59,204 nt of DNA from an uncultured virus (IMG/VR IMGVR_UViG_3300042987_002221) (Duplodnaviria; Heunggongvirae; Uroviricota; Caudoviricetes). The stretch is from IMG/VR virus record IMGVR_UViG_3300042987_002221, positions 62,001 through 121,204 of that record. One strand, given 5' to 3'. The first letter of the stretch is position 1; each line of letters opens with the position of its first letter. The position numbers and the translations under genes were made by a program. Shown here one piece after another: positions 6,281-59,204 of this stretch. The notes beneath the pieces were generated by a model. That model was not told the origin of the DNA. It ran no database searches and worked only from the letters and a program-made list of their open reading frames with translations.

Positions 6281-6333
6281 CAATAAATCCTCAATCTAAT
6301 ATAATGTCTTTCTAGACAGTTGAAACACGGAGC
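6277..6333 (+). promoter_or_regulatory. Repeated early promoter/RBS cassette
   Basis: TTGACAATAAATCC...TATAATGTCTTTCTAGACAGTT...ACGGAGC, near-identical to copies at 10444, 10705, 11918. Confidence 0.9.
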
Positions 6334-6337
6334 ACAC

Positions 6338-7369
6338 ATGTCTACTATTCGCATTCTCAATGGTTCTTATCGCAACCAACCCGTCAAGAATCAAGTCTTT
6401 ACCCTCGTCAAGGGCTTTCAGACTGGCAAGCTTGGCAACTACGTGACCGTCAAGAATGATGGTCAATTCAATATTGACATTGAGTCTGTCAAGGTCAAGG
6501 TTGAGGCTATCACTGACATTGAATATGTCAACGGTATGCCCGAGCAGGTTTCGGTTCACCCTGTTGCTCAGGCTGTTGCCGAAGTTGTGTCTGAGACTGA
6601 TGAGCAGGCTATGGATCGTATCAAGGAGCGTTTTGGCATCCTTGATGAAATGAGCGGTGCTTGCATTGCGGGTGATATCCGTGCAATGATCGTCACTGGC
6701 CCTCCCGGTGTCGGTAAGTCGCATGGTGTTCATACCCAACTGCAAAAGGCTAGCCTTTTTGATAAGCTGGCTGGTAAGAAGCCCCGTTTCGAGATTGTCA
6801 AGGGCACTATGTCTGCGATTGGTCTGTTCGCACTGCTGTATAAGTATAGTGATTCCAAGAATGTCCTGGTTTTTGACGATTGCGATATCTGGGAAGATCA
6901 GGATGCTATCAACATTCTGAAGGGTGCATTGGATTCGGGCAAGACCCGTCGTATTTCTTATAACAAGGACTCTCGTCTTCTGCGTGAGGAAGGTGTTCCT
7001 AACACTTTCAATTTCAACGGTTCTATCATCTTCATCACCAACAATAGCTTTGATAACAAGCGGGCTAGTAAGATTCAGCCGCACATGGAGGCTCTGCAAT
7101 CTCGCAGTCACTTCCTGGATCTGACTATCAACACCGATCGTGATAAGATGCTCCGCATCCGTCAGGTCTATCGTGATGCTGATCCGGGTCTGTTCGTTGA
7201 TTACGATTTCTCTAAGGAACAAGAGGTTGAAATTCTTGATTTCATGTGGGAAAATCGTAGTAAGATTCGTGAGATGAGCCTGCGTATGTGCCTCAAGCTG
7301 GCTGATCTGGTGAAGATTAGTGCTTCCAACTGGAAGAGTCTTGCACGGGCTACTTGCGTTCGCCCTTGA
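6338..7369 (+). CDS. AAA+ ATPase domain protein
   Basis: Walker A GPPGVGKS, Walker B LVFDDCD, IFITN sensor, ALQSR arginine finger; start set at ATG 6338 after GGAG. Confidence 0.85.
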   Translation: MSTIRILNGSYRNQPVKNQVFTLVKGFQTGKLGNYVTVKNDGQFNIDIESVKVKVEAITDIEYVNGMPEQVSVHPVAQAVAEVVSETDEQAMDRIKERFGILDEMSGACIAGDIRAMIVTGPPGVGKSHGVHTQLQKASLFDKLAGKKPRFEIVKGTMSAIGLFALLYKYSDSKNVLVFDDCDIWEDQDAINILKGALDSGKTRRISYNKDSRLLREEGVPNTFNFNGSIIFITNNSFDNKRASKIQPHMEALQSRSHFLDLTINTDRDKMLRIRQVYRDADPGLFVDYDFSKEQEVEILDFMWENRSKIREMSLRMCLKLADLVKISASNWKSLARATCVRP

Positions 7370-7426
7370 TAAATACGTGTGGCAATGTCAATAAGTCCAC
7401 ACACTAATCACACTGTGAGGTAAAAC

Positions 7427-7618
7427 ATGCGTAAGTTTAAGGTTCAAATTATTCAAAATCCTACAACCAATCGTACCGTTATCCGCGAACATTTTTTTGA
7501 CAGTAGAATTGAAGCTTTGAAGTTTTCTGTAGATTTCAACCGTCATGACAATGATCCAGCAGTGTCCAAATACCTACCTAAGGCTGAATTTGTTGGTCCG
7601 GTAAATGTAAATCCTTAA
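7427..7618 (+). CDS. Hypothetical protein
   Basis: SD GAGGT; GATAAATA upstream at 7368. Confidence 0.65.
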   Translation: MRKFKVQIIQNPTTNRTVIREHFFDSRIEALKFSVDFNRHDNDPAVSKYLPKAEFVGPVNVNP

Positions 7619-7636
7619 ATTTTTTTGTAAAAAAGT

Positions 7637-7665
7637 TTGACAAATATTCCCAAAATTGTTATACT
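7637..7665 (+). promoter_or_regulatory. Early sigma70-type promoter
   Basis: TTGACA-17 nt-TATACT. Confidence 0.85.
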
Positions 7666-7696
7666 GTGAAAACAGTAAGCAAACGGAGTGTCTGAA

Positions 7697-8401
7697 ATGA
7701 CTTTTCAATTCGCTAGCCAACAAGACGCTGACACGTTCAAGACTCTCAGCGGTCTGGTCAAGTTCAACAACGGTCAGTTCAAGAGCATCAAGCAGGCGGA
7801 TTTTCTGTTCAAGGTTTTCAGCCGTGAAAATCTGTGGGACACCGCTTCCGCTAAGAACCTGTTCAATGTGGATCTGACTGAAGGTCAGGTCATGGTCGCC
7901 GTCAATGCCTACGTTCGTTGGGCTGGTTATGGTACTAGGAGTGTCCGTCCGGTGACCTGGAAGTTTGTGGTTGACCGTGAGGGTGTGGTTGCTCAATACA
8001 AGCTGGGCTACGTGGGCGATATGCGTAGCGGCACTAGTCCTGATCCCGGCAAGACTGAATTGCTTTGGAGCCGTCAGGGTGAAATTACTCCGCTGGAGCG
8101 TCCTGTTGTTGTCGCCGAAGCTAACACTAGCCAGCATATCGGCGAAGTGGGCAAGCGTATGACCTTCAAGGGTGTGGTTAAGTTTGTCAAGACCTTTGAT
8201 CGTCCCAAGTTTCATTACTACGATAGCGGTGTTGGTTACATCACCCACGTGGATGTGGATGGTTCTACCGTCGTGTATTTTGGTTCGTTCGGCAGCGAAT
8301 ATGAAAAGGGTTCTGCTGTTGAGTTTGTGGCTACCGTCAAGGAGCACGGCGAATATCAGGGCCTGAAGCAAACTGTTGTCAATCGTCCCCGGGTTGCTTG
8401 A
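7697..8401 (+). CDS. Hypothetical early protein, possible C-terminal OB fold
   Basis: GGAG 8 nt before ATG 7697; C-terminal HIGEVGKR...VKEH.EY.G.KQT...RP. Confidence 0.7.
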   Translation: MTFQFASQQDADTFKTLSGLVKFNNGQFKSIKQADFLFKVFSRENLWDTASAKNLFNVDLTEGQVMVAVNAYVRWAGYGTRSVRPVTWKFVVDREGVVAQYKLGYVGDMRSGTSPDPGKTELLWSRQGEITPLERPVVVAEANTSQHIGEVGKRMTFKGVVKFVKTFDRPKFHYYDSGVGYITHVDVDGSTVVYFGSFGSEYEKGSAVEFVATVKEHGEYQGLKQTVVNRPRVA

Positions 8402-8426
8402 CAATAAATCAGTAATTAAATACATT
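8398..8426 (+). promoter_or_regulatory. Early promoter overlapping upstream stop codon
   Basis: TTGACAATAAATC with TACATT at 17-nt spacing. Confidence 0.65.
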
Positions 8427-8455
8427 TCTAAAATTGAAATTTAATGGAGTTTAAA

Positions 8456-9490
8456 ATGTCCGAACGTAAAATGACTACGATCCGCAAGATTGATGAAATT
8501 CGTCCGATTGAAGGTGCGGATGCTATTGAAGCCGCTGTGGTTGGCGGCTGGGTAGTTGTCATCAAGAAGGGTGAATTCAAGGCAGGTGACCTTGCCGTCT
8601 ACCTGGAAATTGATTCTTGGGTTCCTCATGCTGTTGCCCCATTTCTCAGTAAGGGTCAAGAACCCCGTGAGTTTAATGGTGTCAAGGGTGAACGTCTTCG
8701 CACTGTAAAGCTGCGTGGCCAGGTCAGTCAAGGGCTGTTGCTGCCTATTGAAACGGCATTTCCTGGATCTGACCGCCGTTTCTGGTGGAGTCAGGTGAAT
8801 GTTGATATTAGTGAGCGGCTTGGCATTCAAAAGTGGGAGGCTCCTATTCCTGCTCAACTGGCTGGTGATGTTGAAGGAAATTTTCCTTCTGTGATCCCCA
8901 AGACTGATCAAGAGCGTATCCAGAATCTCACTGAAGAACTCAAAACTTGGCAAGGCAACAGTGCCTTTACTTGGGAGGTTACTGAAAAGCTCGATGGCAG
9001 TTCTATGACTGTTTTCGTTCATGGTGATCGTGAAGGTGTTTGCAGCCGTAATTGGGCACTCAAGGAAACTGCTGGCAATACCCTGTGGGCTGTGGCTCGT
9101 CGTGAACAGTTGATTGAAAAGGTTCGTCAAACTGGTCGCAATCTTGCCCTGCAAGGTGAATTGATCGGTGAAGGTATTCAAGGTAATGCCTACAACGTTA
9201 AGGGTCAAGATTTCCGCTTGTTTGATATCTACGATATTGATCGCGGAGAATACCTTGGTCCCCTTGAGCGTCGTGTGTTTGCTGACACTCACGGTATCAA
9301 GCATGTTCCTGTGCTTGCTACTGAAATGGTGATTGAAGAATGGGTTACTGGACTGTTGACTATGGCTGATGGTGTTAGCGCACTGAATTCTAAGACCAAT
9401 CGTGAAGGGCTGGTGTTCAAGTGCAATACGTTTGGTGGTCCTAGTTTCAAGGCAATTTCCAACCGGTGGCTCATTAAGAACGATGGTTGA
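8456..9490 (+). CDS. ATP-dependent RNA ligase, DRB0094 family
   Basis: N-terminal IRPIEGAD/VKLRGQVSQGL, motif I EKLDGSS, LQGELIG, FDIY, REGLVFK, FKAIS. Confidence 0.9.
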   Translation: MSERKMTTIRKIDEIRPIEGADAIEAAVVGGWVVVIKKGEFKAGDLAVYLEIDSWVPHAVAPFLSKGQEPREFNGVKGERLRTVKLRGQVSQGLLLPIETAFPGSDRRFWWSQVNVDISERLGIQKWEAPIPAQLAGDVEGNFPSVIPKTDQERIQNLTEELKTWQGNSAFTWEVTEKLDGSSMTVFVHGDREGVCSRNWALKETAGNTLWAVARREQLIEKVRQTGRNLALQGELIGEGIQGNAYNVKGQDFRLFDIYDIDRGEYLGPLERRVFADTHGIKHVPVLATEMVIEEWVTGLLTMADGVSALNSKTNREGLVFKCNTFGGPSFKAISNRWLIKNDG

Positions 9491-9492
9491 TG

Positions 9493-9522
9493 AATAACCC
9501 TACCTTGAGTGGGGTTATTTTT
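9493..9522 (+). terminator. Intrinsic terminator
   Basis: AATAACCC...GGGTTATT followed by T-run. Confidence 0.7.
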
Positions 9523-9555
9523 GCCATATCTCAACAAACAGGAGTAAAAAACATA

Positions 9556-9738
9556 ATGAATAAAGAACTCGGTTTTGCTATCTTTTATTGTATCGCTACT
9601 ATAGCGACAGCAATTTGCATCCATGGATTTGGTAGGGCAGGCGCCTTCCATTCGGTTGTAGAAGATTGCCAAAAGTTAGGTGCATTCTATATAGGTGGTA
9701 CAGTCTATGAATGTAAGGAAAAGAAAATTGACAAATAA
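9556..9738 (+). CDS. Small membrane-anchored protein
   Basis: GGAG SD; N-terminal hydrophobic segment; C..G.F....VY.C. Confidence 0.6.
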   Translation: MNKELGFAIFYCIATIATAICIHGFGRAGAFHSVVEDCQKLGAFYIGGTVYECKEKKIDK

Positions 9739-9756
9739 TATGGTATTTGATATACT
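9728..9756 (+). promoter_or_regulatory. Early sigma70-type promoter
   Basis: TTGACA-17 nt-TATACT. Confidence 0.85.
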
Positions 9757-9786
9757 GTATTCATGTTGAACGCAACGGAGAGCAAG

Positions 9787-9954
9787 ATGTTTGATATCTA
9801 TGTCTATAACGCGGACAATGGTGAACTGGTCGGTGTTGATCCTGCTTATGCCGCAGACTCCTATAAGGCCGCTGCACAACGTTGGATCGACCGTGGTTGC
9901 ACTGTAAAGGTCGTTGACACTTATGATGGTGTCGTGGTCTACACGCTGGGGTGA
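9787..9954 (+). CDS. Small hypothetical early protein
   Basis: ACGGAG SD before ATG 9787. Confidence 0.65.
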   Translation: MFDIYVYNADNGELVGVDPAYAADSYKAAAQRWIDRGCTVKVVDTYDGVVVYTLG

Positions 9955-10077
9955 CAATTTTTTTGTCTTGAGAATACTCTACCAATTGAATTGGTATGTG
10001 ATGATTTATTTTGTCGTCAAATTCAAGTTGTTCTGGTTTAAGATAAATATCTGACTATCCTCAGAAGGAAATAGTCT

Positions 10078-10434
10078 ATGCGAATTAACGAAATCAACAA
10101 TACCCCGAAGATTTCTCCTAAAAAAGAACGGGCGCTCAAGAAAAGTATTACTGCAATTACTAAAGAGTTTCCCAGGACTTTCAAATCCAAACAATATAGA
10201 ATTACCACAAACTGGATCAACGAATTCAAAGCACATTTGGAAATTCATATTGACAGTCCTGCATTACAAAGAGACAAAAAGTCCTATAATTTTTTGGTTA
10301 GCGATGTAGAAAGTATTTTGAGACAAAACGAAAATATCTCCAAATACACTTATTTGGGTGGCGCTGATCCCATGGGTCCTGAGCCCTTGTTTCACTATGC
10401 TGTTTGGGAGTTGGTATTCCCGTACAATCTGTAA
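10078..10434 (+). CDS. Late-promoter gene with MRINE N-terminus (possible capsid-targeted protein)
   Basis: GATAAATA at 10042; AT-rich codon usage unlike neighbours. Confidence 0.65.
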   Translation: MRINEINNTPKISPKKERALKKSITAITKEFPRTFKSKQYRITTNWINEFKAHLEIHIDSPALQRDKKSYNFLVSDVESILRQNENISKYTYLGGADPMGPEPLFHYAVWELVFPYNL

Positions 10435-10443
10435 TATTTCTTC

Positions 10444-10500
10444 TTGACAATAAATCCCAAAACTCATATAATGTCTTTCTAGACAGTTGAGACACGGAGC
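10444..10500 (+). promoter_or_regulatory. Repeated early promoter/RBS cassette
   Basis: TTGACAATAAATCCCAAAACTCATATAATGTCTTTCTAGACAGTTGAGA, identical to the 10705 copy over ~49 nt. Confidence 0.9.
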
Positions 10501-10507
10501 AAACGAA

Positions 10508-10708
10508 ATGATCAACGAAGCAAAAGTCCTGAAAGTTGTCAAGTCTGTGACCGATACCAACGCTTACTTTTACAACGGTACCTTGTTTTTGGAAACTGTT
10601 GACAGCGACATTGCTGTTCGTGTTTTCAATGCAATTTGGGAAAACATCACGGCCGCGGTTGCGTTTGGTAAGGTCGGTAACGAGACCTCTTACGATTTTC
10701 TCGGTTGA
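10508..10708 (+). CDS. Small hypothetical early protein
   Basis: Flanked by two identical promoter repeats; stop inside next TTGACA. Confidence 0.75.
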   Translation: MINEAKVLKVVKSVTDTNAYFYNGTLFLETVDSDIAVRVFNAIWENITAAVAFGKVGNETSYDFLG

Positions 10709-10763
10709 CAATAAATCCCAAAACTCATATAATGTCTTTCTAGACAGTTGAGAAACACGGAGC
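10705..10763 (+). promoter_or_regulatory. Repeated early promoter/RBS cassette
   Basis: Direct repeat of 10444 element. Confidence 0.9.
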
Positions 10764-10769
10764 AAATTC

Positions 10770-11258
10770 ATGAAGATCGTCATCAGCACTCAAATCCGCG
10801 AAAACTACGGCGCCCACGATTGGGATGGCGAGGGTGCTTGCCCGCAGTACTGGAAGTGCAAGGGTGGCGACACCTACGTTATCCCGAACCTGACGGTTGC
10901 TCAGGTCCTCAAGGTCAAGGATCAGGGCATCCCGACCCTGAAGGCTCTGATCGAATCCCGCAATGAGGGTTTCGAGGAGTACGTTGTTGATTGGTCTATC
11001 CTCGATGATGACGCCAAGGTCTGTGATGAGTGGGAAACCCCGTTCGAACTGTTCTGGGAACAGGGTCGCTGGATCGCTCGGCGCACCGTCGAGAACGGTG
11101 AGTACGGCTGCATGCGCCGTGAGGTTGCTAGCAAGTCCGAGCAGTATGACATGCTGATGGCTGGCGGTCGTGAGAACTACCGTGTGGTCTATACGATGCG
11201 TAACGGTGATTCGGTCACCGGTGAGCAGGTCTCGGAATATCTTTCGAAGGCTGCTTGA
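10770..11258 (+). CDS. Conserved hypothetical phage protein
   Basis: TQ.RENYGAHDWDG.G.CPQYWK.KGG motif; follows promoter cassette. Confidence 0.8.
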   Translation: MKIVISTQIRENYGAHDWDGEGACPQYWKCKGGDTYVIPNLTVAQVLKVKDQGIPTLKALIESRNEGFEEYVVDWSILDDDAKVCDEWETPFELFWEQGRWIARRTVENGEYGCMRREVASKSEQYDMLMAGGRENYRVVYTMRNGDSVTGEQVSEYLSKAA

Positions 11259-11271
11259 TTCAGGAGTAAAA

Positions 11272-11547
11272 ATGAATATTCGCGAGTGGTTTAACCGACA
11301 TTTTGACCGTAAGGAGCACACGGTGGGTTATATTGTTCGGGACGAAAACGGCATCATGCTGATGGAGATCAGCAATGACGCGGCGCAGTATATTATCCGA
11401 GGTTCAAAAGGTCGTTTTCGTCCATACAAGGTAGACAACGCCGCTGAGACAGTGGTCTTTGAGATTCTTGAAGACGCAGCGTGGTCCATTCCGGTGGGTA
11501 AAATTTTTCTATGGCGTGGGACCCTGTTGATCCCAAAGGTTGATTGA
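11272..11547 (+). CDS. Hypothetical protein
   Basis: SD AGGAG; stop inside TTGACA at 11544. Confidence 0.7.
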   Translation: MNIREWFNRHFDRKEHTVGYIVRDENGIMLMEISNDAAQYIIRGSKGRFRPYKVDNAAETVVFEILEDAAWSIPVGKIFLWRGTLLIPKVD

Positions 11548-11572
11548 CAGGGTCTTTGATCGGTGCTATAGT
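11544..11572 (+). promoter_or_regulatory. Early sigma70-type promoter
   Basis: TTGACA-17 nt-TATAGT. Confidence 0.8.
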
Positions 11573-11600
11573 ACACACACTGAAACACAAGGAGTACCTG

Positions 11601-11921
11601 ATGACCTATCGGATGTTCATTGATGACGAGCGATTCCCACCCAACGATGGTAAGGAATGGGTCATTGTTCGTAGTTCTGCTGAAGCCATGAAGATGGTGC
11701 TTGATCGTGGTGTGCCCAACTTTATCTCATATGATCATGATCTGGGAGGCGAAGACACCAGCATGGTCTTCATCTACTGTATGATTAATCTCTATCTGGA
11801 TGGTGATATCAAGGTGTTCCCTACTGAGTTCGTGGTTCATAGCCAGAACCCTGTCGGTTCCCGCAACATCAACAAACTGCTGCTCAGTTTTATTGAAGCT
11901 GTTGATCCTGTGTCGGCTTGA
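11601..11921 (+). CDS. Cyclic-phosphate-processing receiver-like domain protein
   Basis: FIDDER, W.IVRS..EA, ISYDHDLG, HSQNPVG motifs. Confidence 0.75.
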   Translation: MTYRMFIDDERFPPNDGKEWVIVRSSAEAMKMVLDRGVPNFISYDHDLGGEDTSMVFIYCMINLYLDGDIKVFPTEFVVHSQNPVGSRNINKLLLSFIEAVDPVSA

Positions 11922-11973
11922 CAATAAATCCCAAATCGCATATAATGTCTTTCTAGACAGTTAGATAACGGAG
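11918..11973 (+). promoter_or_regulatory. Repeated early promoter/RBS cassette
   Basis: TTGACAATAAATCCCAAA...TATAATGTCTTTCTAGACAGTT...ACGGAGC. Confidence 0.9.
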
Positions 11974-11979
11974 CAAGAA

Positions 11980-12213
11980 ATGCAAGTTGGTGACATCGTT
12001 AAGAGCCTGGATTTCAACGGTATTGACAACTGCTACATGGTTGGCAAGGTCGTCGGTATTCATCATGACGGCACGTTCCGTGCGAAGTTCATCAAGCGTG
12101 TTTGGGAAGGCGTTGAAGATCGCAAGTTCAAGACTGATTTCTTCACGGCTCCGCAGCAAGGTCAACATATGTTTGATCGCGCTCAATCTCCTCGTGTCAT
12201 TGTTGTTGGTTAA
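11980..12213 (+). CDS. Small hypothetical protein (SH3-like start)
   Basis: MQVGDIVKSLDF; follows promoter cassette. Confidence 0.75.
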   Translation: MQVGDIVKSLDFNGIDNCYMVGKVVGIHHDGTFRAKFIKRVWEGVEDRKFKTDFFTAPQQGQHMFDRAQSPRVIVVG

Positions 12214-12236
12214 TCTTTAACTCAAAGGAAATAGAA

Positions 12237-12521
12237 ATGCATTCTCATCAACATGGTGTTTGCCCCGTGTGCAACGGCACTGGCCGTGTCCCGGCTGGTA
12301 ACTATCGTCGTACTGCTGGCTACGACAAGGAAACTGATACTATCGCTTGCCGTAATTGCGGTGGTCAGACCATGAGCATGAAGGCAACGGGCAAAGTTCG
12401 TCTGCGTCCTGATGGTACGCCGTGCGAACACAAGTATGTGGCTCATGTTGCAGGTCGCTGCTACGTGGTCTACACCTGTGAACACTGTGGCGATAGCTAC
12501 GGTATCGATTCTAGTGATTAA
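12237..12521 (+). CDS. Small zinc-finger protein
   Basis: CPVCNGTG, CRNCGG, CEH, CEHCG motifs; SD AAGGA. Confidence 0.75.
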   Translation: MHSHQHGVCPVCNGTGRVPAGNYRRTAGYDKETDTIACRNCGGQTMSMKATGKVRLRPDGTPCEHKYVAHVAGRCYVVYTCEHCGDSYGIDSSD

Positions 12522-12567
12522 TCAGAAATTTGTCAGTGTGTTTTTTCAATCTAAAGGAGTAAGTAAA

Positions 12568-12831
12568 ATGTCTAAGGTTTATTTCATGCACGTTCGTAAC
12601 GTTGACACCTCTGATCGTATCAGCAACTTTGGCGGTGCCACTATCGCATATCGTGAAGTGCCCGGCGGAGTAGAATTCGCTGAATCATGGTGCAGTGATC
12701 GTGATAATTTCAATAAGGCCTACGGTCGTGCTAAGGCGCAGGGTCGGCTGAATAGTTCTAACTATCGTCGTACTTTCGCTGGGTCATTCGTTGAATTCCG
12801 TCAGGCGATTTCTGAAAATCGAGTGTTGTAA
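12568..12831 (+). CDS. Conserved small phage protein
   Basis: SD AAGGAG; GGATIAY...CS..DNFNK..GR..A.GR pattern. Confidence 0.7.
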   Translation: MSKVYFMHVRNVDTSDRISNFGGATIAYREVPGGVEFAESWCSDRDNFNKAYGRAKAQGRLNSSNYRRTFAGSFVEFRQAISENRVL

Positions 12832-13152: not shown

Positions 13153-13950
13153 ATGAAGCGTATTTTTAGTGTTGGTATTCTTGCCGCTGCTGTTCTTGCT
13201 ACGGGTTGCACTCGTATCGAAACCGGTGAAGTAGGCGTTCGTGTGGGCTTTGACAAGCAAGTCAAGCCCGGTGAACTTCAACCTGGTAGTTTTAATCAAA
13301 CCCTTGTCGGTGATGTATTGACGTTCCCGGTAAAGGATGTCAATGTGGCAATTGAGAACATGACTCCTGTTGCTAAGGACAACAGTACCATGAAGGATTT
13401 TGATGTTGTGGTAGTTTATAACATCAATCCAAATCAGGTAAGTGAAATTTATTCTACTAAGAACAAGGCGTTTCACGCTATCACCAAGGATGATGTTTAT
13501 CTGATGTACAATTATGTAGTGCAAAATGCACGAAATGCAGTTTACAAGGCTGCACGAAAGTACGATGCGCTAGATATGGGTGACAATCGTAGTGAAATGG
13601 AGAACTTCATCAAGGAAGAAATTGTTCGTAATTTGACCGAAGAAAAGCTTGATGGTAGTATTGCTATCAGTCAGGTTCTGATTCGTAACGTTGTTCCTGC
13701 TGATTCGGTTGTAGCAAGTGCTAATGATCTGGTTCGTGCTAAGAATGAACTTAAGCAAAAGGAAGTTGAAGTCAAGACCGCCGAAGCTGAGGCTCGCCGT
13801 ATGGCAGCACTGGCTAATAACAGTCAGAGTTCTATTGCTTTCATGCAAGCCCAGGCCACTTTGAATATTAGTGAAGCAGTAAAAGCGGGAAAAGTTCAGA
13901 CCATTATCATCCCAAGTAATCTGACTATGCTAGGGAATATTTCTAAGTAA
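13153..13950 (+). CDS. SPFH/Band 7/prohibitin family lipoprotein
   Basis: Lipobox LATGC, I..GEVGVRV.F, coiled-coil AEAEA tail. Confidence 0.85.
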
Positions 13951-14655
13951 TTTTCTGCGTCTAGCTTCTTTGCTAGCCGCAGTAACATAAGTCCATTCGG
14001 ACATAGGTTTTCCTGTAGACTTACATTCATCTAGAATTTCTACAGGCAATCTATGTCCTTTTCCGTCTTTATCTATTAGAGTTATTATATTTTTACCAAG
14101 AAAATTATGATTTCCTTGCTCAACACGAATTTGATTATTTTTTCTAGCTGTTTCTTTATTTAAAAAATTGTGTGTTCCATTTTCAACTCGTTGTTGATTT
14201 ATTTTTTTAGAAAGTTCAGATAATTCATCTTTATTCATAGTTTGAAAATTTAATTTTTTCTGTTCTGCCATTTTTTTAGCTACATTCATGTTATCTCTTG
14301 TTAAGAATGGATGAGAGCCATTCTCTGTTTTTTTGAGATTATTTGCAGTTGCGGCAATTGATAGTTTTTTTATTGTTTTCTCTTCAAAAATTCTACCAGA
14401 CGTTCCCTCACCACCGTCTGTTTTATTTCGTAATATCCCTGTATTTAAATCTTTTCTGCCGTACCATTTAATATATCTACGTTCAAGGGCTATTGCACCT
14501 ATTTCAGTTAGGTTTTTTTCTAGAAAAACTATTTTGGTTAAATCTTTTGGTATTTTAACTGAGTGTTTAGCAAGATAACGTTTTTCTTTACCTTTGCCAA
14601 TATAATACGGAGTCCCATCTTTTCTTAAATAGGCGTAAACATAATAAATATTCAT
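13930..14655 (-). CDS. Free-standing GIY-YIG homing endonuclease
   Basis: [17 protein letters not shown]...ERR.I..YGRKD...G.LRN.TDGGEG; C-terminal NG.H(N/P)FL repeats. Confidence 0.85.
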
Positions 14656-14726
14656 GCTGATAGTTCCTTTTCAACTGTTAGAGCGGGTGGATGTTGGTAG
14701 CATCGCGACCTGCACTTTTATTTATC
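14656..14726 (-). promoter_or_regulatory. Late promoter plus conserved structured leader of homing endonuclease
   Basis: GATAAATA then hairpins; alignable to 26670-26738. Confidence 0.75.
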
Positions 14727-14743
14727 AAAAATATTATTTTTAG

Positions 14744-14797
14744 ATTCAGACAATCATTATTCCCAGCAACCTAACTATGCTAGGTAGTGTAAAGTAA
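14744..14797 (+). repeat. Second, synonymously divergent copy of the SPFH gene 3' end
   Basis: Encodes [17 protein letters not shown] versus [18 protein letters not shown] at 13894-13950. Confidence 0.9.
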
Positions 14798-14861: not shown

Positions 14862-16292
14862 ATGCACCTTATAGATATATTTGAAGCCAGAAAAAACCCT
14901 GATCTTAATCCTAAAGTATCAGTAAATCAGTACATTGATCAGGCAATGGCCTCAGCAGGTAAATTGCCAGGTTCAGATATTACTAATCTATTCATTAGTT
15001 TTACTCAATTACCTAAGTTAGGTATTAATCCTAGATCACATTACAATACACCATTAGGAATCTATTCATATCCAGCAGATTATGTGATAGAATCTACTCA
15101 TGGAAGATATTCTATGGCTACTTTACCTTTTGCTGGTAAACAACCCTATGCTAATATTTTTCAAGGTCGTGGTAATATTGTTCATTTGAATACAATGAGT
15201 TTGCAAGATGAATATCGCTACAATGATAAACTTCGTGCTTATGCAAAACGATTGCCAGCTGTAGATTTTACTAAGCATTATGCTCCTCCCGGCAAAGATT
15301 GGCCTGACATAGTAGACAACACAATCAATGCCGCAGTTGACTATGCAAGAGAGCGTATGTTACCCGGTGGCAGATTATGGTACACAACTTGGAAATTAAG
15401 TGGCTATATAGAGACATATCTAAAAAAACCTGCATCACTAGCATGGAATGAATTATTCAGACAGGCATTAGGTATTGACGGTTGTGTTGATACGGGTAAA
15501 GGAATTATACATCCTAGTGAACCCACACAGGCTGTATTTTTTAGTTTGGGTGCGACTAAACTCATTTCTACTGTTCAAAACAAATATAGTCCTGAGCAAA
15601 TGTCAGCCGGCGAAGACCGTGGTGTAAAGATGAAGGAGCAATTAGAAAGATTGCGAGATGCACTAGAAGAGAAAGATTATGGAACAATAGTGTGGCAAAT
15701 ACTTCAACGTAGTGTCATTGATGGTGAAAATTTTGATAGTAAGTATTTACTGAAGTATATACCCAAAGATGTTAGATATTTGCTGTATAAAGATTATAAA
15801 TCAGGGCTAGCACTTGATTTGGGTGAAAAATTAAAAGCAGATGAATTTTTATATGCTGTATCTGAAGACCCCAAAATTTTATACTACGGGGCACTTCAAC
15901 AACATGAAAAACTTATATTTGATAATCTAGATGCAATAATGAAGATATTACAGGACTTCAAGAGTAATGTCGGTAAAGGTAAGTTAGAAACAGCATTAAA
16001 AAGAATCTATATAAGTGATATTAGAGATATAGCTAAAATGCTATTCAGAAAATTTCCAAAAGACGATCCTGAATTTTTAAAGGGATTGATTGATTTATAT
16101 CCAGGTGTATACGAATCTTTCTATAATAATTGGGGTCTTGAAGGTGGAAGAAAATACATTTATCAATATGCTTTGAAGAAAATGAAGGAAGATCCAACGA
16201 ATTTTGATCAAGATGACATTGATAACTTACTAGGTATTATTGAATCTTTAAATTATCAAGAATATTTGGATAAGGAACGCAAGGCCAAATAA
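14862..16292 (+). CDS. Late protein, paralog 1 (possible ADP-ribosyltransferase-like domain)
   Basis: GATAAATA at 14849; N-terminal ~250 aa clearly homologous to the next ORF. Confidence 0.7.
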   Translation: MHLIDIFEARKNPDLNPKVSVNQYIDQAMASAGKLPGSDITNLFISFTQLPKLGINPRSHYNTPLGIYSYPADYVIESTHGRYSMATLPFAGKQPYANIFQGRGNIVHLNTMSLQDEYRYNDKLRAYAKRLPAVDFTKHYAPPGKDWPDIVDNTINAAVDYARERMLPGGRLWYTTWKLSGYIETYLKKPASLAWNELFRQALGIDGCVDTGKGIIHPSEPTQAVFFSLGATKLISTVQNKYSPEQMSAGEDRGVKMKEQLERLRDALEEKDYGTIVWQILQRSVIDGENFDSKYLLKYIPKDVRYLLYKDYKSGLALDLGEKLKADEFLYAVSEDPKILYYGALQQHEKLIFDNLDAIMKILQDFKSNVGKGKLETALKRIYISDIRDIAKMLFRKFPKDDPEFLKGLIDLYPGVYESFYNNWGLEGGRKYIYQYALKKMKEDPTNFDQDDIDNLLGIIESLNYQEYLDKERKAK

Positions 16293-26012: not shown

Positions 26013-26669
26013 TTAAGTTTTCAACGTTTTACATTTTTGAAAATGAAACCGCATCATAACAGGTCCGTTTCCGATTTTGTGACAGTGGGGGCAAACATAT
26101 TCTTTTTTTGGTACGCCTTTTAACATTTTGCTTTTTGCTTGTATAATTTCTAACGATTGCTTTTTTCCTTTATTTGGAGAAGGTTTTCCTTTATGTGCAT
26201 TAGACAAAGCAATACAATGTTCTTCTGAAAATTTTTTACCTTTTTTACTAGTACTGATGTTTAATTTATGTTCTTCTGAAAATGTTCTTCCCCTCAAAGC
26301 CAAACTGGTTTTGGGATTTTTAATTCCCCTGCGCATTCTTCCTCGTTTTGTAGATGCCTCTTTTGAAAATCTATAACCTGTAGCTCCTTCTCCGCCGTCA
26401 GTTTTATTTCTTAGTATTCCAGTATTTAAATCTTTCCGTCCATACCATTTAATCATTCTTCTTTCTATTGCAAATGCCCCTATCTCGCTAAGGTTAGATT
26501 CAAGTATGATAATTCTTGTTTTGTTTTTGGGTGGTTTTATACCCTTATCGTGAGTATTCCATGCTCGGATATTGTATCCCTTTCCAATATAGTATGGGGT
26601 GTTATCTTGTCTTAAATATGCATACACATAAAACCCTGTGGGAGGGTTTTTTCTTGAATAAATAGTCAT
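26013..26669 (-). CDS. Free-standing GIY-YIG homing endonuclease with NUMOD3-like repeats
   Basis: YVYAYLR...PYYIGKG; SEEH...S...KGK repeats; CPHC...HF..C tail. Confidence 0.88.
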
Positions 26670-26738
26670 GCTGATTGCTCCTTGTAAGCGTTAGAGTAGT
26701 TGGGAACGCCAATTCCGCGAACTACACTTTTATTTATT
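26670..26738 (-). promoter_or_regulatory. Late promoter plus conserved structured leader of homing endonuclease
   Basis: AATAAATA then hairpins; alignable to 14656-14726. Confidence 0.75.
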
Positions 26739-26782
26739 CCATTTGATAAATATTATTATGATGATAGGAGACGAAACTTTGT

Positions 26783-27556
26783 ATGAGCTATTCAACCGCG
26801 GTTTTTTTATATACCCAGAGACAAATCGTTGTCCTACTGTCTGGAAATTCAGCGAGACGATATATGCCGGTCTACAGTAAACCATTAACACTACACAAAG
26901 GTGTGGACAATAGGATAGATTTTCAGTTCTTGAACCAGGAACAAAAACCGGTTGACATCACAGGCAAAGACATAACCTGTAGAATCATTAGCTATGATGG
27001 GTCCGAAGTATTATTGTCAAAGGCACTTACCTTACAACTCCCAGCAAATGGCATCGCAGCATTGATATTAAACGCGGCTGATATAGAGAATTTTCCTGCA
27101 CAAAAAGCATATTATTCACTAGAGATTCCAGTAAGTTCATTTAACTATCCAGTATTCGTAGATCAAAATGCAGGAGCAAGAGGCGATATGTTTATCGTTA
27201 ATTCAGTATTGCCAGCATTTATTCCTTCAATGCCGATCACAATTCCAACTGGACAACCTTTCCCTAATCTTAATCCCAATGCAAATGCAAATACAACTGC
27301 AAATACTTATTTCAGCAGTGTAATCAACACCGAAAACAATCCTATACTTACATTGCAAACTCATTATGATGGGTATTATGGTAATGTAACCATAGAAGGT
27401 TCAACAATTGTTGATAATGATTGGTATCCAATAACCAACGAATCGTACAGTAACCTAACCGAGACAAAAGGTTACACAATTGTAGGTTATCATCCTTATG
27501 TAAGAATGAACTTTACAAGCAATGTCGGCGTGGTAACTAATATCCTAGCACGATAA
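26783..27556 (+). CDS. Putative virion structural protein
   Basis: GATAAATA at 26745; beta-rich composition; KG.DN.I.F...NQ..KPVDITG. Confidence 0.6.
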   Translation: MSYSTAVFLYTQRQIVVLLSGNSARRYMPVYSKPLTLHKGVDNRIDFQFLNQEQKPVDITGKDITCRIISYDGSEVLLSKALTLQLPANGIAALILNAADIENFPAQKAYYSLEIPVSSFNYPVFVDQNAGARGDMFIVNSVLPAFIPSMPITIPTGQPFPNLNPNANANTTANTYFSSVINTENNPILTLQTHYDGYYGNVTIEGSTIVDNDWYPITNESYSNLTETKGYTIVGYHPYVRMNFTSNVGVVTNILAR

Positions 27557-36282: not shown

Positions 36283-36352
36283 GATAAATACTGCATATAT
36301 TCACATAGGGTGAATTTATGCAGTACCCACTGCGTAGCGACTAGAACTCGCA
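36283..36352 (+). promoter_or_regulatory. Late promoter and structured 5' leader
   Basis: GATAAATA followed by three hairpins with an alternative pairing. Confidence 0.6.
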
Positions 36353-36373
36353 TATTTAATAAAGGAAAAACAA

Positions 36374-37615
36374 ATGGGACGTCCTCTTAAAATCGCAAAA
36401 GCACAAGCAGTTGTAACACTTACCGCAACTAATGGTACTACAGAAGTAGTTACAACAAGTGCAAATTTCACAAATTTAGGTATTATTGCTGGCATGACTT
36501 TTATTCCTGCTAGTAACGTAGGAAATTTAGTAGCTGGCACAACATATTGGATTCTTGAAGTTATAAATTCAGGTAATAACAGTACATTTACAGTTTCAGC
36601 AACTGATTTGTCCGCTAATCCAACTTTTACTAAATTTGACTTAGGTACTACTGCTGCACAATCAGTCGCGCTGACAGTAAATGTAGTTGATGCATATTTC
36701 AATAATCCAGTAAGTGGTGATGGATATCCAGCGACAAACACCAGTACTTATTCTGTAGTAGGCGGCAACACCAGTATTTACGGTAAACAAGTATTAGTAA
36801 GCGTTGCAATTGGTAGAACCGGAAATGGAACAATTTACGGAGACACTGGTAACACAAACATATACGGGCAAGATACAGATTTAGCTAACACATTATCTGT
36901 AGGATCAGCAGTTCAAGTCGCTGTAGCAAATGTTAACGGTTCTACTGACTACGTTGATATTGGTTTTGTCAGTTCTGTAACTGGTTATATCACTGTTGCG
37001 GTAGCTAATACAACTGCTACTGGTAATATCATCGGTACTTCAGGAAATGCTGAAACATTATTTGTTGGTGCTCCTGTAACATTTGATGCAAATACAGGTG
37101 GATTGACAACTGGTACTGTATATTTCGTTGATACTATTGCCAACGCAGCAGCATTTACTGTAGCTTCATCACAATATGGACCACAAGTTCAGTTGACAAC
37201 TGGTACTGATGTTTCTAATGCAACTATTGATGTTGCTGTATTAACGGCTAACGCTACTGCAAACTTCACCAATGCAGATTATGCATATGCAAACGATGAA
37301 GCAGGTTATATCGTTCGTCAAAAAGGTAAACAGAAGTATTTGGTAACAGGTACAACAACTGGTTTAACAGCTCCTTGCTTTACTGCAAACGTTGCTAATA
37401 CTGCATTGACTCCTAATACCATGAGCATTATTGCAACATATGCTAATTCTTCAACAACAAGAGTACAAAGTCTCAGTGATCATACTCTTGAAATATTTGG
37501 AACAGGTAACGTATTGCCAAATAGTACTCCAGCGTTTGCAACATTCAATACTGCATATGCTGCTGATACATATGGCGGACAACCTTACCCAATAGTAACA
37601 ATCAACAACGCCTAA
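36374..37615 (+). CDS. Virion structural protein
   Basis: MGRPLK start, T/A/N/V-rich, GYIVRQKG..KYLV; late promoter and strong SD. Confidence 0.7.
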   Translation: MGRPLKIAKAQAVVTLTATNGTTEVVTTSANFTNLGIIAGMTFIPASNVGNLVAGTTYWILEVINSGNNSTFTVSATDLSANPTFTKFDLGTTAAQSVALTVNVVDAYFNNPVSGDGYPATNTSTYSVVGGNTSIYGKQVLVSVAIGRTGNGTIYGDTGNTNIYGQDTDLANTLSVGSAVQVAVANVNGSTDYVDIGFVSSVTGYITVAVANTTATGNIIGTSGNAETLFVGAPVTFDANTGGLTTGTVYFVDTIANAAAFTVASSQYGPQVQLTTGTDVSNATIDVAVLTANATANFTNADYAYANDEAGYIVRQKGKQKYLVTGTTTGLTAPCFTANVANTALTPNTMSIIATYANSSTTRVQSLSDHTLEIFGTGNVLPNSTPAFATFNTAYAADTYGGQPYPIVTINNA

Positions 37616-56290: not shown

Positions 56291-59204
56291 ATGGCTAAAC
56301 AAAATATTGATTTTGGTTCATTTCCAAACGACATCAACGCTGATGCTATACGCACAGCTTTCCAAAAAACCCAACAAAATTTTGATGAGTTGTATTTAAG
56401 AGCATCAGGTGCGAGTGGTACAAGTGGTGCATCAGGTACCAGTGGTATTAGTGGTTTTTGCGGTATAAGTGGCTTCAGTGGTACAAGTGGATTAAATGGA
56501 ACCTCAGTAACACTTGCAGGTACAGTACCAGATTACACTTTTTTACCAAATGGTGCTCCGGCAGGAACACTTTATATTGTTATTAATTCAGGTGGCGGAT
56601 ACAATGCAGGTGATGGAGCAGTAAGTAACGGGGACGACACTTGGGGTAATATTGGGCCGATACAAGGTCCATCCGGAGTTAGTGGAGCATCAGGTATAAG
56701 CGGATTTAGTGGTAGAAGTGGATTCAGTGGCAGATCTGGTACCAGTGGTTTTAGTGGTTCAGGTATAAGTGGTTTCAGTGGATTCAGTGGAACAAGTGGA
56801 TTCAGTGGTATAAGTGGATTAAATGGTACTTCTGTTACTCTAGCAGGTTCAGTAGTAGATTACACTTATTTACCAAATGGCACTCCAGCAGGAACTCTTT
56901 ACATTATACTTAATTCAGGTGGCGGATACAATGCAGGTGATGGAGCAGTAAGTAACGGAGACAATACTTGGAGTAATGTTGGACCAATACAAGGACCATC
57001 TGGCGTCAGCGGTACAAGCGGATTTTCGGGTGCATTAGGTATAAGTGGATTCAGTGGCGTAAGTGGTGAAAGTGGCGCAAGTACTAGTGGATTCAGTGGT
57101 CTAAGCGGGTTAAGTGGCTTTTCAGGGATATCTGGTGAAAGTGGATTCAGTGGTGTAAGTGGCTTCAGTGGTAGAAGTGGATTTAGTGGCACAAGTGGCT
57201 TCAGCGGCACAAGTGGATTTAGTGGCACAAGTGGATTTAGTGGCACAAGTGGATTCAGTGGCTTTTCAGGGGCATCTGGTGAAAGTGGTTTTAGTGGTTT
57301 TAGTGGTGTAAGTGGATTCAGCGGAACAAGTGGATTCAGTGGTACCAGTGGTTTTAGTGGTAGAAGTGGATTCAGTGGCACATCTGGATTTAGTGGCACA
57401 TCTGGATTCAGTGGAGTAGGTACAAGTGGATTCAGTGGCGTAAGTGGATTCAGCGGTACAGGTACAAGTGGATTCAGTGGTTTTTCTGGAACATCTGGTG
57501 AAAGTGGATTCAGTGGTGTAAGTGGCTTTAGCGGTGTAAGTGGTTTTAGTGGTAGAAGTGGATTCAGCGGTGTAAGTGGCTTCAGTGGAGTTAGTGGATT
57601 CAGTGGTGTAGGTACAAGTGGATTCAGTGGCGTAAGTGGATTTTCAGGGACATCTGGTGAAAGTGGATTCAGTGGAAGAAGTGGATTCAGTGGTTTAGGT
57701 GGATCTAGCGGTTTTTCTGGAATAAGTGGCTTTTCGGGGACAGCTGGTGAAAGTGGATTTAGCGGTGTAAGTGGATTCAGTGGCAGAAGTGGATTCAGTG
57801 GGGTATCTGGAACAAGTGGATTCAGTGGTATAAGTGGATTCAGTGGCAGAAGTGGATTCAGTGGGACTTCAGTTACAATAGCTGGATCAGTAATAGATTA
57901 TACTTATTTACCAAACGGTACCCCGGCAGGAACACTTTACATTATACTTAATTCAGGTGGCGGATACAATGCAGGTGATGGAGCAGTAAGTAACGGAGAC
58001 AATACTTGGAGTAATATAGGACAATTACAAGGTCCATCCGGCTTTAGTGGTTTTAGCGGTAGATCTGGTTTTAGCGGTACATCTGGCTTCAGTGGATCGA
58101 TTGGTGTAAGTGGATTCAGTGGTGTAAGTGGATTCAGTGGTGTAAGTGGATTTAGTGGTGTAAGTGGATCAACTGGATCAGGTATAAGTGGTTTTAGTGG
58201 CGTAAGTGGATTCAGTGGTGTAAGTGGATTCAGTGGCTTCAGCGGCTTCAGCGGCTCAGGGGTAAGTGGATTCAGTGGTGTTAGTGGTTTTAGTGGTAGA
58301 AGCGGTTTTAGTGGTGTAAGTGGATTCAGTGGTGTAAGTGGATTCAGTGGTGTAAGTGGATTTAGTGGTAATTCTGTTACTCTTGCTGGATCAGTAATAG
58401 ATTATACTTATTTACCAAATGGTACTCCGATAGGAACTCTTTATGTCATTCTTAATTCAGGTGGCGGATACAATGCAGGTGATGGAGCAGTAAGTAACGG
58501 AGACAATACTTGGAGTAATGTTGGACCAATACAAGGTCCATCTGGCTTTAGTGGTTTCAGCGGTACATCTGGTTTCAGCGGTACATCTGGTTTCAGTGGT
58601 ACAAGTGGATTCAGTGGAACAAGTGGATTCAGTGGAACAAGTGGATTCAGTGGAACAAGTGGATTCAGCGGTATATCTGGCTTCAGCGGTAGAAGTGGTT
58701 TCAGTGGCGTAAGTGGTTTCAGCGGTGTTAGTGGATTCAGTGGTTTCAGTGGATCAGGTGTAAGTGGCTTCAGTGGTTTCAGTGGATCAGGTGTAAGTGG
58801 CTTCAGCGGCACAAGTGGCTTCAGCGGTATATCTGGCTTCAGCGGTGTAAGTGGATTCAGCGGTGTAAGTGGATTCAGCGGTATATCTGGCTTCAGCGGT
58901 GTAAGTGGCTTCAGTGGTTTCAGTGGATCAGGTGTAAGTGGCTTCAGTGGTTTCAGTGGATCAGGTGTAAGTGGCTTCAGCGGCACAAGTGGCTTCAGCG
59001 GCACAAGTGGATTCAGCGGCACAAGTGGCTTCAGCGGTGTAAGTGGATTCAGCGGTGTAAGTGGATTCAGCGGTATATCTGGCTTCAGCGGTGTAAGTGG
59101 CTTCAGTGGTTTCAGTGGATCAGGTGTAAGTGGCTTCAGCGGCACAAGTGGCTTCAGCGGTACAAGTGGATTCAGTGGTACAAGTGGATTCAGCGGTATA
59201 TCTG
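56291..59204 (+). CDS. Giant (Ser-Gly-X)n collagen-like fibre protein with gp9/gp10-like N-terminal anchor (3' partial, absent from ORF track)
   Basis: GATAAATA at 56278; MAKQNIDFG..PND...D.IR.AF.K...NF.ELY; AGT-GGA-TTC-type triplets in one frame to window end. Confidence 0.85.
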   Translation, partial: MAKQNIDFGSFPNDINADAIRTAFQKTQQNFDELYLRASGASGTSGASGTSGISGFCGISGFSGTSGLNGTSVTLAGTVPDYTFLPNGAPAGTLYIVINSGGGYNAGDGAVSNGDDTWGNIGPIQGPSGVSGASGISGFSGRSGFSGRSGTSGFSGSGISGFSGFSGTSGFSGISGLNGTSVTLAGSVVDYTYLPNGTPAGTLYIILNSGGGYNAGDGAVSNGDNTWSNVGPIQGPSGVSGTSGFSGALGISGFSGVSGESGASTSGFSGLSGLSGFSGISGESGFSGVSGFSGRSGFSGTSGFSGTSGFSGTSGFSGTSGFSGFSGASGESGFSGFSGVSGFSGTSGFSGTSGFSGRSGFSGTSGFSGTSGFSGVGTSGFSGVSGFSGTGTSGFSGFSGTSGESGFSGVSGFSGVSGFSGRSGFSGVSGFSGVSGFSGVGTSGFSGVSGFSGTSGESGFSGRSGFSGLGGSSGFSGISGFSGTAGESGFSGVSGFSGRSGFSGVSGTSGFSGISGFSGRSGFSGTSVTIAGSVIDYTYLPNGTPAGTLYIILNSGGGYNAGDGAVSNGDNTWSNIGQLQGPSGFSGFSGRSGFSGTSGFSGSIGVSGFSGVSGFSGVSGFSGVSGSTGSGISGFSGVSGFSGVSGFSGFSGFSGSGVSGFSGVSGFSGRSGFSGVSGFSGVSGFSGVSGFSGNSVTLAGSVIDYTYLPNGTPIGTLYVILNSGGGYNAGDGAVSNGDNTWSNVGPIQGPSGFSGFSGTSGFSGTSGFSGTSGFSGTSGFSGTSGFSGTSGFSGISGFSGRSGFSGVSGFSGVSGFSGFSGSGVSGFSGFSGSGVSGFSGTSGFSGISGFSGVSGFSGVSGFSGISGFSGVSGFSGFSGSGVSGFSGFSGSGVSGFSGTSGFSGTSGFSGTSGFSGVSGFSGVSGFSGISGFSGVSGFSGFSGSGVSGFSGTSGFSGTSGFSGTSGFSGIS
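56501..58540 (+). repeat. Four copies of a 57-aa globular unit interrupting the SGX repeats
   Basis: Units at 56501, 56828, 57866, 58370: SVT(L/I)AG(T/S)V.DYT.LPNG.P.GTLY...NSGGGYNAGDGAVSNGD.TW.N.G..QGP. Confidence 0.9.

Follow-up and report, generated by a model that had tools for sequence, protein, structure and literature searches.

A portable two-hairpin cassette at the 5' end of free-standing homing endonuclease genes in T4-like phages, and its predicted cis-antisense RNA

What is the role of the conserved leader that precedes two homing endonuclease genes of an uncultured T4-like phage, and on which strand does it act? The two genes lie on the minus strand of the stretch of DNA analyzed here (59,204 nucleotides, hereafter the window), which makes up the latter half of a virus record of 121 kb with an estimated completeness of 35%. 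The T4-like phage genes identified in the window encode gp32-like, RecA, UvsW-like, UvsY-like, primase, DnaB-like helicase, tail sheath, tail tube and gp15-like proteins. The known late box of T4-like phages is TATAAATA/NATAAATA (PMC2984593, PMC2988020), and the relevant section of PMC2988020 places the T4-type box about one helical turn ahead of the start site. TAAATA was found within 90 nt upstream of five of the eight window genes with virion-family matches and of none of the five replication genes checked, as expected of a T4-type late box. No gp55-like sigma factor was detected among 87 proteins scanned against PHROGs, a set that includes proteins from other loci and draws on a record 35% complete. 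Long ORFs overlap on both strands at window 6296-12831, around an RNA ligase gene (for example 6296-7222 with 6320-7369 and 8441-9304 with 8444-9490), and the end of the record (window ~58400-59204) is a short-period tandem repeat coding for Ser/Gly.

Both leader copies are present on the minus strand, each directly ahead of an ORF, with stems as described in the first-pass annotation and with TATTTATT in codons 2-5 of both ORFs. The parts of each copy are listed in Table 1. A pattern and model search of the 121-kb record found no cassettes beyond these two, and a profile search gave two matches to phrog_314, namely the two cassette nucleases. By profile, and as insertions absent from relatives, both window ORFs are assigned as GIY-YIG-type homing endonucleases; we take the YVYAY..YYIGKG stretch to be the GIY-YIG motif. 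Nuclease 1 has no Pfam match. Nuclease 2 matches phrog_314 with an E-value of 4.8e-14 and has NUMOD3 (E 2.2e-6) as its sole Pfam domain, the Pfam GIY-YIG family giving no match; a sequence search of the PDB with this protein returned nothing useful. The two nucleases are 66% identical over 91 N-terminal residues and share nothing thereafter, so that the two window copies alone could reflect plain shared descent. The case for portability is made by the wider set of cassettes.

Table 1. Coordinates in the window of the two cassettes, their nuclease genes and the inserted DNA
Feature	Position	Strand	Basis or remark
Copy 1 predicted sense late-promoter box, TAAATA	14719..14724	-	sequence; 5 nt ahead of first base of hairpin B's complement; mRNA start predicted at 14713
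Copy 1 structured core, predicted antisense RNA	14656..14713	+	fold, model R1, family covariation
Copy 1 hairpin A	14657-14681	+	anti-SD UCCUU 14665-14669 in/at loop
Copy 1 linker, single A	14682	+	
Copy 1 hairpin B	14683-14713	+	G·U 14685-14711; bulged G 14705 and 14707
Copy 1 predicted antisense late-promoter box, TAAATA	14645..14650	+	inside codons 2-4; 5 nt ahead of core's first G; ATG within that spacer
Free-standing GIY-YIG-type homing endonuclease 1, 241 aa	13930..14655	-	phrog_314, E 8e-4
Copy 2 predicted sense late-promoter box, TAAATA	26731..26736	-	sequence; mRNA start predicted at 26725
Copy 2 structured core, predicted antisense RNA	26670..26725	+	model R1, E 2.4e-18
Copy 2 hairpin A	26671-26694	+	anti-SD loop CCUUGUA
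Copy 2 linker, A	26695	+	
Copy 2 hairpin B	26696-26725	+	
Copy 2 predicted antisense late-promoter box, TAAATA	26659..26664	+	inside codons 2-4
Free-standing GIY-YIG-type homing endonuclease 2, 218 aa, with NUMOD3 repeat	26013..26669	-	
Inserted DNA, locus 1 (nuclease and cassette)	13935..14744		empty alleles L706, L707
Inserted DNA, locus 2	26013..26788		empty allele L368

Three pattern scans of IMG/VR, each with different fixed blocks, matched at least 123, at least 125 and at least 124 stretches, the looser two including chance matches. The matches listed in the three scans, together with loci L403 and L429 and the window copies, were passed through a strand-neutral filter that accepted Watson-Crick, G·U and A·C alike as pairs, asked for at least seven such pairs out of eight, and required hexamers resembling the box on both sides. 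This left 203 distinct cassettes, which are related sequences rather than independent events. The columns left free by the first pattern covary, and with at least 123 IMG/VR loci the motif lies far beyond chance. Loci were also picked by protein to avoid sequence bias: model R1 matched 69 of 80 loci chosen by protein relation to nuclease 1 and 21 of 45 chosen by relation to an HNH gene. The core is 53-68 nt long and the whole cassette ~80 bases. Of the blocks that had been called invariant from the two window copies, AAAGTG (promoter spacer) and AAGGA (SD) vary across the family.

Among five cultured phages examined, the cassette precedes related nucleases in two, Rhizobium phage RHph_I1_18 (MN988519.1, 80299-80359; E 1e-7) and Variovorax phage V45v66 (PV558790.1, 86002-86058; E 1e-12), with the inner of its two promoter boxes altered or displaced in both; S-SRM01, RSP15 and B23 have related nucleases and no cassette. 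A loose-pattern search of GTDB, which is not a survey of cellular genomes, gave no full R1 match in the 80 loci listed, the best of them (E 0.017) having no core. In one marine metatranscriptome 7% of the words were present, and its contigs, which carry no strand information, show a 348-nt piece of a related cassette. Several variants were observed. In L139, L156, L164 and L353 the fold and inner box are intact and there is no TAAATA at the usual outer position. In L290, L294, L310, L346 and L619 hairpin A is longer and an ATG lies inside the core, before CAGC, so that an antisense RNA would cover the start codon.

The strand on which the fold is selected was determined from the non-Watson-Crick pairs. 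When the ten pair columns of hairpin B are read on the mRNA strand of the 203 listed cassettes, 1959 of 2030 pairs are Watson-Crick, 68 are A·C, one is G·U and two are other combinations; A·C is held by 62 cassettes and G·U by one. Since every A·C read from the mRNA strand corresponds to a G·U in its complement, this bias shows that the fold has been selected on the opposite strand. Hairpin A shows the same pattern, its third pair being A·C on the mRNA strand in 200 of the 203 (one side was limited to purines by the search expression) and its fourth pair A·C in 43 with no G·U. The single mismatch noted earlier in the GCAGGT/ACCCGC stem is indeed present, but as an A·C it is a G·U on the other strand and follows the family rule. 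On this evidence the conserved fold is placed on the antisense strand with high confidence, and the proposal that the selected fold is a structured leader of the nuclease mRNA is not supported.

Seventy of 145 non-redundant references and the window copies (cut 2 nt short) were aligned as 72 antisense sequences. All 1004 pair cells are paired, a figure inflated by the filter, which enriches for paired copies and could not have created the strand bias. Double changes occur at 11 of the 14 pairs; none of 500 shuffles reached this level, and slid partners paired at 32-50%. The covariation that had been proposed from two copies thus extends to the larger alignment. RNAalifold recovered hairpin B unaided; the inner part of hairpin A is too gapped to score. 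The mean z-score is -2.0 for the antisense strand and -1.1 for the sense strand, with the antisense value lower in 167 of the 203 listed cassettes. Folded alone on the mRNA strand, the window leaders are no better than shuffles (z -1.4 and -1.6). The copy 1 core (model R1, E 1.2e-14) folds at -20.6 kcal/mol as antisense and at -9.7 kcal/mol as mRNA strand. Copy 2 alone slightly favors the mRNA strand (-12.4 antisense versus -13.4 kcal/mol), and its antisense assignment comes from the family rather than from its own fold.

The antisense consensus consists of a G, hairpin A with a CUG/UAG base, one A and hairpin B. Anti-SD-like letters occupy the first loop in 182 of the 203 listed cassettes. 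Hairpin B contains two single bulged G residues, invariant in 72 of 72 copies, on either side of a pair that occurs as G-C, G·U or A-U, and the pairs next to the invariant bulges vary freely. The first pattern fixed part of the loop, and a scan without that fixed part gave the same bulges. The near-invariant antisense letters are GCUG, UAG-A-G and the two bulged G residues. DNA folds of the core were weak and not significant. Rfam 15 gave no match at gathering score on either copy, only chance matches at E-values up to 10 (the best 0.29, at copy 1), and none in 20 related loci. A self-cleaving ribozyme of the HDV-like, pistol, twister or hammerhead type was rejected; the topology, compared by eye, does not fit, and there is no Rfam match. 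An Rfam freshwater-2 RNA is present elsewhere in the window (36299-36376, plus strand, 68.8 bits), directly after an GATAAATA box and before an unannotated 413-aa gene. It is unrelated to the cassette, model R1 giving no match there.

Two facing late-promoter-like boxes bracket the core, each about as far from it as a promoter box stands from its start site, and the ATG falls within the spacer of the inner one. The sense box stands 5 nt from the core in 137 and 3 nt in 48 of the 203 listed cassettes, and a late box lies directly upstream of the nuclease in 48 of 50 protein-selected cassette genes. On the other side, a TATTTA-like hexamer occurs 4-6 nt past the core in 109 of the 113 distinct leaders listed by the first scan, whose pattern did not ask for it; among the same 113 the spacing is 5 nt in 84 and the hexamer exact in 91. 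Relative to the start codon's A its offset is 3, 4 or 5, and the box is therefore kept in three frames. When isoleucine is codon 3, ATT is used in 61 of 64 first-scan leaders. Among distinct protein-selected loci the exact inner box is found in 43 of the 50 genes that have a cassette, against 4 of the 21 homologues without one (Fisher p 1e-7, with rows that are not independent and one homologue dropped because it had no start); in the other seven cassette genes no exact box stands at a spacing of 4-6 nt. We read the TATTTA of codons 2-5 as a predicted promoter, a late box that faces the outer one and is selected at the DNA level. Pairing of TATTTATT with the upstream promoter had been suggested, yet beyond the shared A the three flanking positions match in only 74, 60 and 68 of 183 cases. 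Complementarity that does not run past the shared box argues against a promoter-to-codon helix, and an inverted second promoter box explains TATTTATT. A good terminator is absent: a run of four U within 3 nt of hairpin B is seen in just 59 of the 203 listed cassettes, none was called at copy 1, and terminators are no stronger where read-through would oppose the neighbor (p 0.65). The upstream neighbor is divergent at both window copies; across 128 loci it is divergent in 73, co-directional in 36 and uncalled in 19.

The wider set shows that the cassette moves between nuclease genes. An ORF of at least 60 aa follows 190 of the 203 listed cassettes; 130 of these ORFs group as GIY-YIG-like and 44 as HNH, and the other 16 are spread over 12 small clusters. 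Representatives of the small clusters were scanned and include TnsA-like nucleases, an endonuclease-VII-like zinc protein and NUMOD3 proteins, several having no match. Core identity within and between the two big clusters is 0.66, 0.67 and 0.66. The 55-nt core of an HNH leader (L055) is the same, letter for letter, as that of a GIY-YIG leader (L119), and two HNH leaders show 96% identity to window copy 2. In the pair L294/L295, as in six pairs of near-identical cassettes from different clusters, identity stops at the two boxes. L294 and L295 precede diverged GIY-YIG genes ~2.5 kb apart on one contig and share a near-identical stretch of ~95 nt from outer to inner box, which suggests recent copying of the cassette. 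As judged from its sequence, the cassette is real, widespread and portable in T4-like phages. Five cassettes (L002, L137, L138, L193 and L237) precede short proteins without a recognized nuclease domain, three of which show NUMOD3-like repeats; these are perhaps decayed nucleases or DNA-binding proteins.

Both window cassettes lie within inserted DNA that relatives lack. Two close relatives are empty at locus 1, where the insert is flanked by a ~40-bp duplication of the 3' end of an SPFH gene (repeat score 40). The two copies of this end, at window 13897-13950 and 14747-14796, differ at nine third positions over 13 codons and at no residue, and a new stop comes with the insert. Repeats of this kind flank 8 of 119 cassette loci against 1.1 expected, the repeat at L321 being 77 bp. 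Locus 2 is empty in 50 distinct relatives and carries nuclease and cassette in three cases (the window, L403 and L429), with 25 duplicates and three uncallable rows set aside. Here the insert replaces 24 nt of the empty allele and brings a new late box and SD for gene 26783-27556, whose own promoter and SD are replaced by those of the insert (window 26737-26788); the old late box persists, altered, just past the nuclease stop. The first-pass annotation was right that a conserved element travels with the nucleases, as the antisense covariation, empty alleles and protein-selected loci attest. Its alternative of an element-end motif is weak, since the cassette sits within the inserted DNA, 20-50 bp short of its end, and 122 complete genes show no conserved far end. 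A two-ended transposon was rejected likewise, there being no shared motif after the 122 stop codons. Nor did co-resident cassettes behave as incompatibility groups driven apart, 11 pairs averaging 0.74 identity against 0.66 for random pairs. At L706:2889-3278, downstream, the beginning of gene 14862-16292 is present a second time with 68% identity; this gene has no Pfam or PHROG match.

The explanation we favor, as probable though well short of secure, is that the cassette encodes a predicted cis-antisense RNA of ~60 nt that covers the ribosome-binding site and works like RNA-OUT of IS10. The cassette would be a self-contained expression-and-restraint unit at the 5' end of free-standing homing endonuclease genes. 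The outer box would drive the nuclease mRNA late in infection, and the inner box, in codons 2-4, a short opposite-strand RNA that starts from the GCUG beside the start codon and folds into two hairpins. The loop of hairpin A would display anti-Shine-Dalgarno letters and initiate pairing with the mRNA at its ribosome-binding site; pairing would then spread over the whole 5' UTR, blocking translation and inviting decay, and the facing promoters may add transcriptional interference. Hairpin B, with its two fixed bulged G residues, is probably an RNA stabilizer or is read by a protein. The predicted cognate duplexes have net energies of -89 and -86 kcal/mol, compared with -13 and -17 kcal/mol for cross pairs between the window copies. 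With promoter, SD, start codon and repressor in one unit, recombination could place the cassette before any nuclease domain. We infer the firing of both boxes, the RNA ends and the repression from sequence.

Several features fit this antisense reading poorly. Base-pairing repression by itself needs neither an invariant bulged G nor an invariant G·U, the G·U bias would also suit single-stranded DNA, the terminator is poor, both cultured phages have an inner box that is shifted or altered, and the fold of copy 2, taken singly, is slightly better as mRNA strand. In addition, both boxes belong to one promoter class and would fire together, which leaves the timing of control unexplained. The poor terminator, the shared promoter class and the invariant bulges keep in play a protein-binding RNA, an outward promoter and a single-stranded DNA signal.

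An improbable view is that a small protein-binding RNA, or a single-stranded DNA signal, presents a fixed three-dimensional motif to one shared factor that controls or mobilizes all the free-standing nucleases of a large phage clade. In the RNA version, which we rate a shade lower, the opposite-strand RNA would be chiefly a scaffold; a shared protein, from phage or host, would read its bulged G residues, G·U and helix junction and silence or license all the unrelated nucleases together, pairing with the mRNA being secondary. The invariance of the two bulged G residues beside freely varying pairs speaks for such a scaffold, as does the finding that one core heads unrelated nuclease folds; the weak cross-pairing of the window copies means that this sharing of sequence is not explained by cross-repression. 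Against it, no candidate protein is at hand, the first pattern itself fixed part of the loop, although the unfixed scan gave the same bulges, and bulges in antisense RNAs such as plasmid CopA can serve pairing kinetics.

Somewhat less plausible again is that the inner box drives transcription outward into the neighboring host gene, with the hairpins as a 5' stabilizer of that mRNA, an arrangement that would tie the nuclease into the genome. The divergent upstream neighbor in 73 of 128 loci and the weak terminator suit such a promoter, and promoters embedded in T4 nuclease genes are described as favoring retention in the part of PMC2988022 that deals with them. However, read-through would oppose the neighbor in the 36 co-directional loci, both window neighbors have a TAAATA of their own, and the empty alleles run without any cassette.

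Our expectation is low that the element acts as a structured leader of the nuclease mRNA, closed by a TAAATA/TATTTA helix on read-through transcripts, in the manner of the early/late control of T4 I-TevI and mobE. Minimum free energy folds of the mRNA strand do close that helix, the complement of hairpin A brackets the SD, copy 2 leans to the mRNA strand, and the mechanism is established for T4-type nucleases (PMC2988022, PMC3014915). Nevertheless, the 68 A·C pairs against a single G·U are on the wrong strand for it, the complementarity ends at the box, the window leaders folded alone are not significant, and most copies have a divergent neighbor and so would receive no sense read-through. Equally unlikely is a fold in single-stranded DNA that serves as a strand-specific subterminal signal moving the nuclease or the cassette: the one-strand fold with extrahelical bases 20-50 bp from the insert end, the excess of flanking duplications and the identity that stops at the two boxes would agree with it, but its models, the ends of IS200/IS605 elements and integron attC sites, need a cognate recombinase and a second end or R/L boxes, the element has no mobilizer and, in 122 complete genes, no conserved second end, folding of the DNA is weak and not significant, and each end of the core lies at transcription-start distance from a promoter box.

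If the antisense reading is correct, a cassette common to GIY-YIG, HNH and TnsA-like nucleases would make regulation a swappable module of homing endonucleases, beside their catalytic and DNA-binding domains, and would help to explain how some large aquatic phages tolerate many nuclease genes. The odd M-x-I-Y, M-Y-L and M-I-F N termini of these proteins would be a by-product of a promoter box inside the codons. Varied loops on a fixed ~60-nt scaffold could also give near-orthogonal antisense switches. If instead a shared factor reads the RNA, it would offer a common handle on the taming of unrelated homing endonucleases and on their spread to new sites, often with duplicated flanks.

A full-text literature search found no description of the cassette, the listings of Fremin 2023 and Weinberg 2017 not having been compared by sequence. 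Candidates DNAVirus_8282/8283, 8080, 1290 and 8377 of Fremin 2023 (PMC10690425) are 58-105 nt long, come from freshwater phage and lie no more than 25 bp from GIY-YIG and/or HNH genes; two of them, 8282 and 8283, overlap on opposite strands. Compared by table description only, they could be the cassette; those entries carry no argument about function or strand. Dassa 2009 (PMC2677866) describes conserved 5' UTR motifs before GIY-YIG and Vsr-like nucleases of aquatic T4-like phages, with TATAAATA; the hairpins there belong to "fractured genes", and motifs 1 and 2 (of the TTACACTTCC / GGAAGTGTAA type) form one SD-masking stem. The rows of its Fig. S4 compared by eye, those of motif 2 in part, are without the CGCG, CTCTA and CAGC blocks of the cassette. 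In cyanophage S-PM2, the CfrI RNA is likewise antisense to a homing endonuclease gene of a T4-like phage, but as described in PMC2984593 it is ~225 nt long and links psbA with the nuclease gene, and is not a portable two-hairpin cassette.

Phage homing endonucleases are known to be controlled gene by gene, through mRNA hairpins and, for I-TevI, also through autorepression, as set out in the relevant sections of PMC2988022. The 5' regions of T4 I-TevI/II/III, segB and Aeh1 mobE resemble the cassette in having a late box and structure at the SD that limit nuclease synthesis (PMC2988022, PMC3014915). Those hairpins are on the mRNA, specific to one gene and served by one promoter, whereas the cassette is portable and has its fold between two boxes, on the strand opposite the gene. 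A T4-type hairpin masking the ribosome-binding site was rejected because the helix is not conserved on the mRNA strand, and a T4-type early or middle upstream transcript because the upstream gene is divergent at both window copies and in 73 of 109 called loci. An IS200/IS605 end or attC site was set aside for want of a second end. IS10 itself was also dismissed: the ORFs belong to homing nuclease families and there is no conserved far end, whereas IS10 needs a DDE transposase and two terminal inverted repeats. No sequence relation to RNA-OUT was found, Rfam giving no match.

In design, the likeness is to the RNA-OUT/RNA-IN pair of IS10/Tn10, a selfish element with facing promoters (PMC5006887). 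RNA-OUT is described there as an opposite-strand RNA of ~69 nt, complementary to the translation initiation region, that blocks ribosome binding. Predicted counterparts of its hallmarks are present in the cassette, namely an opposite-strand promoter box in the 5' end of the gene and a covarying structure complementary to the ribosome-binding site. IS10, as presented in that account, uses sigma-70 promoters and serves one transposase family; the cassette, in contrast, uses phage late boxes, has two hairpins with fixed bulges, overlaps the whole 5' UTR and heads several unrelated nuclease folds.
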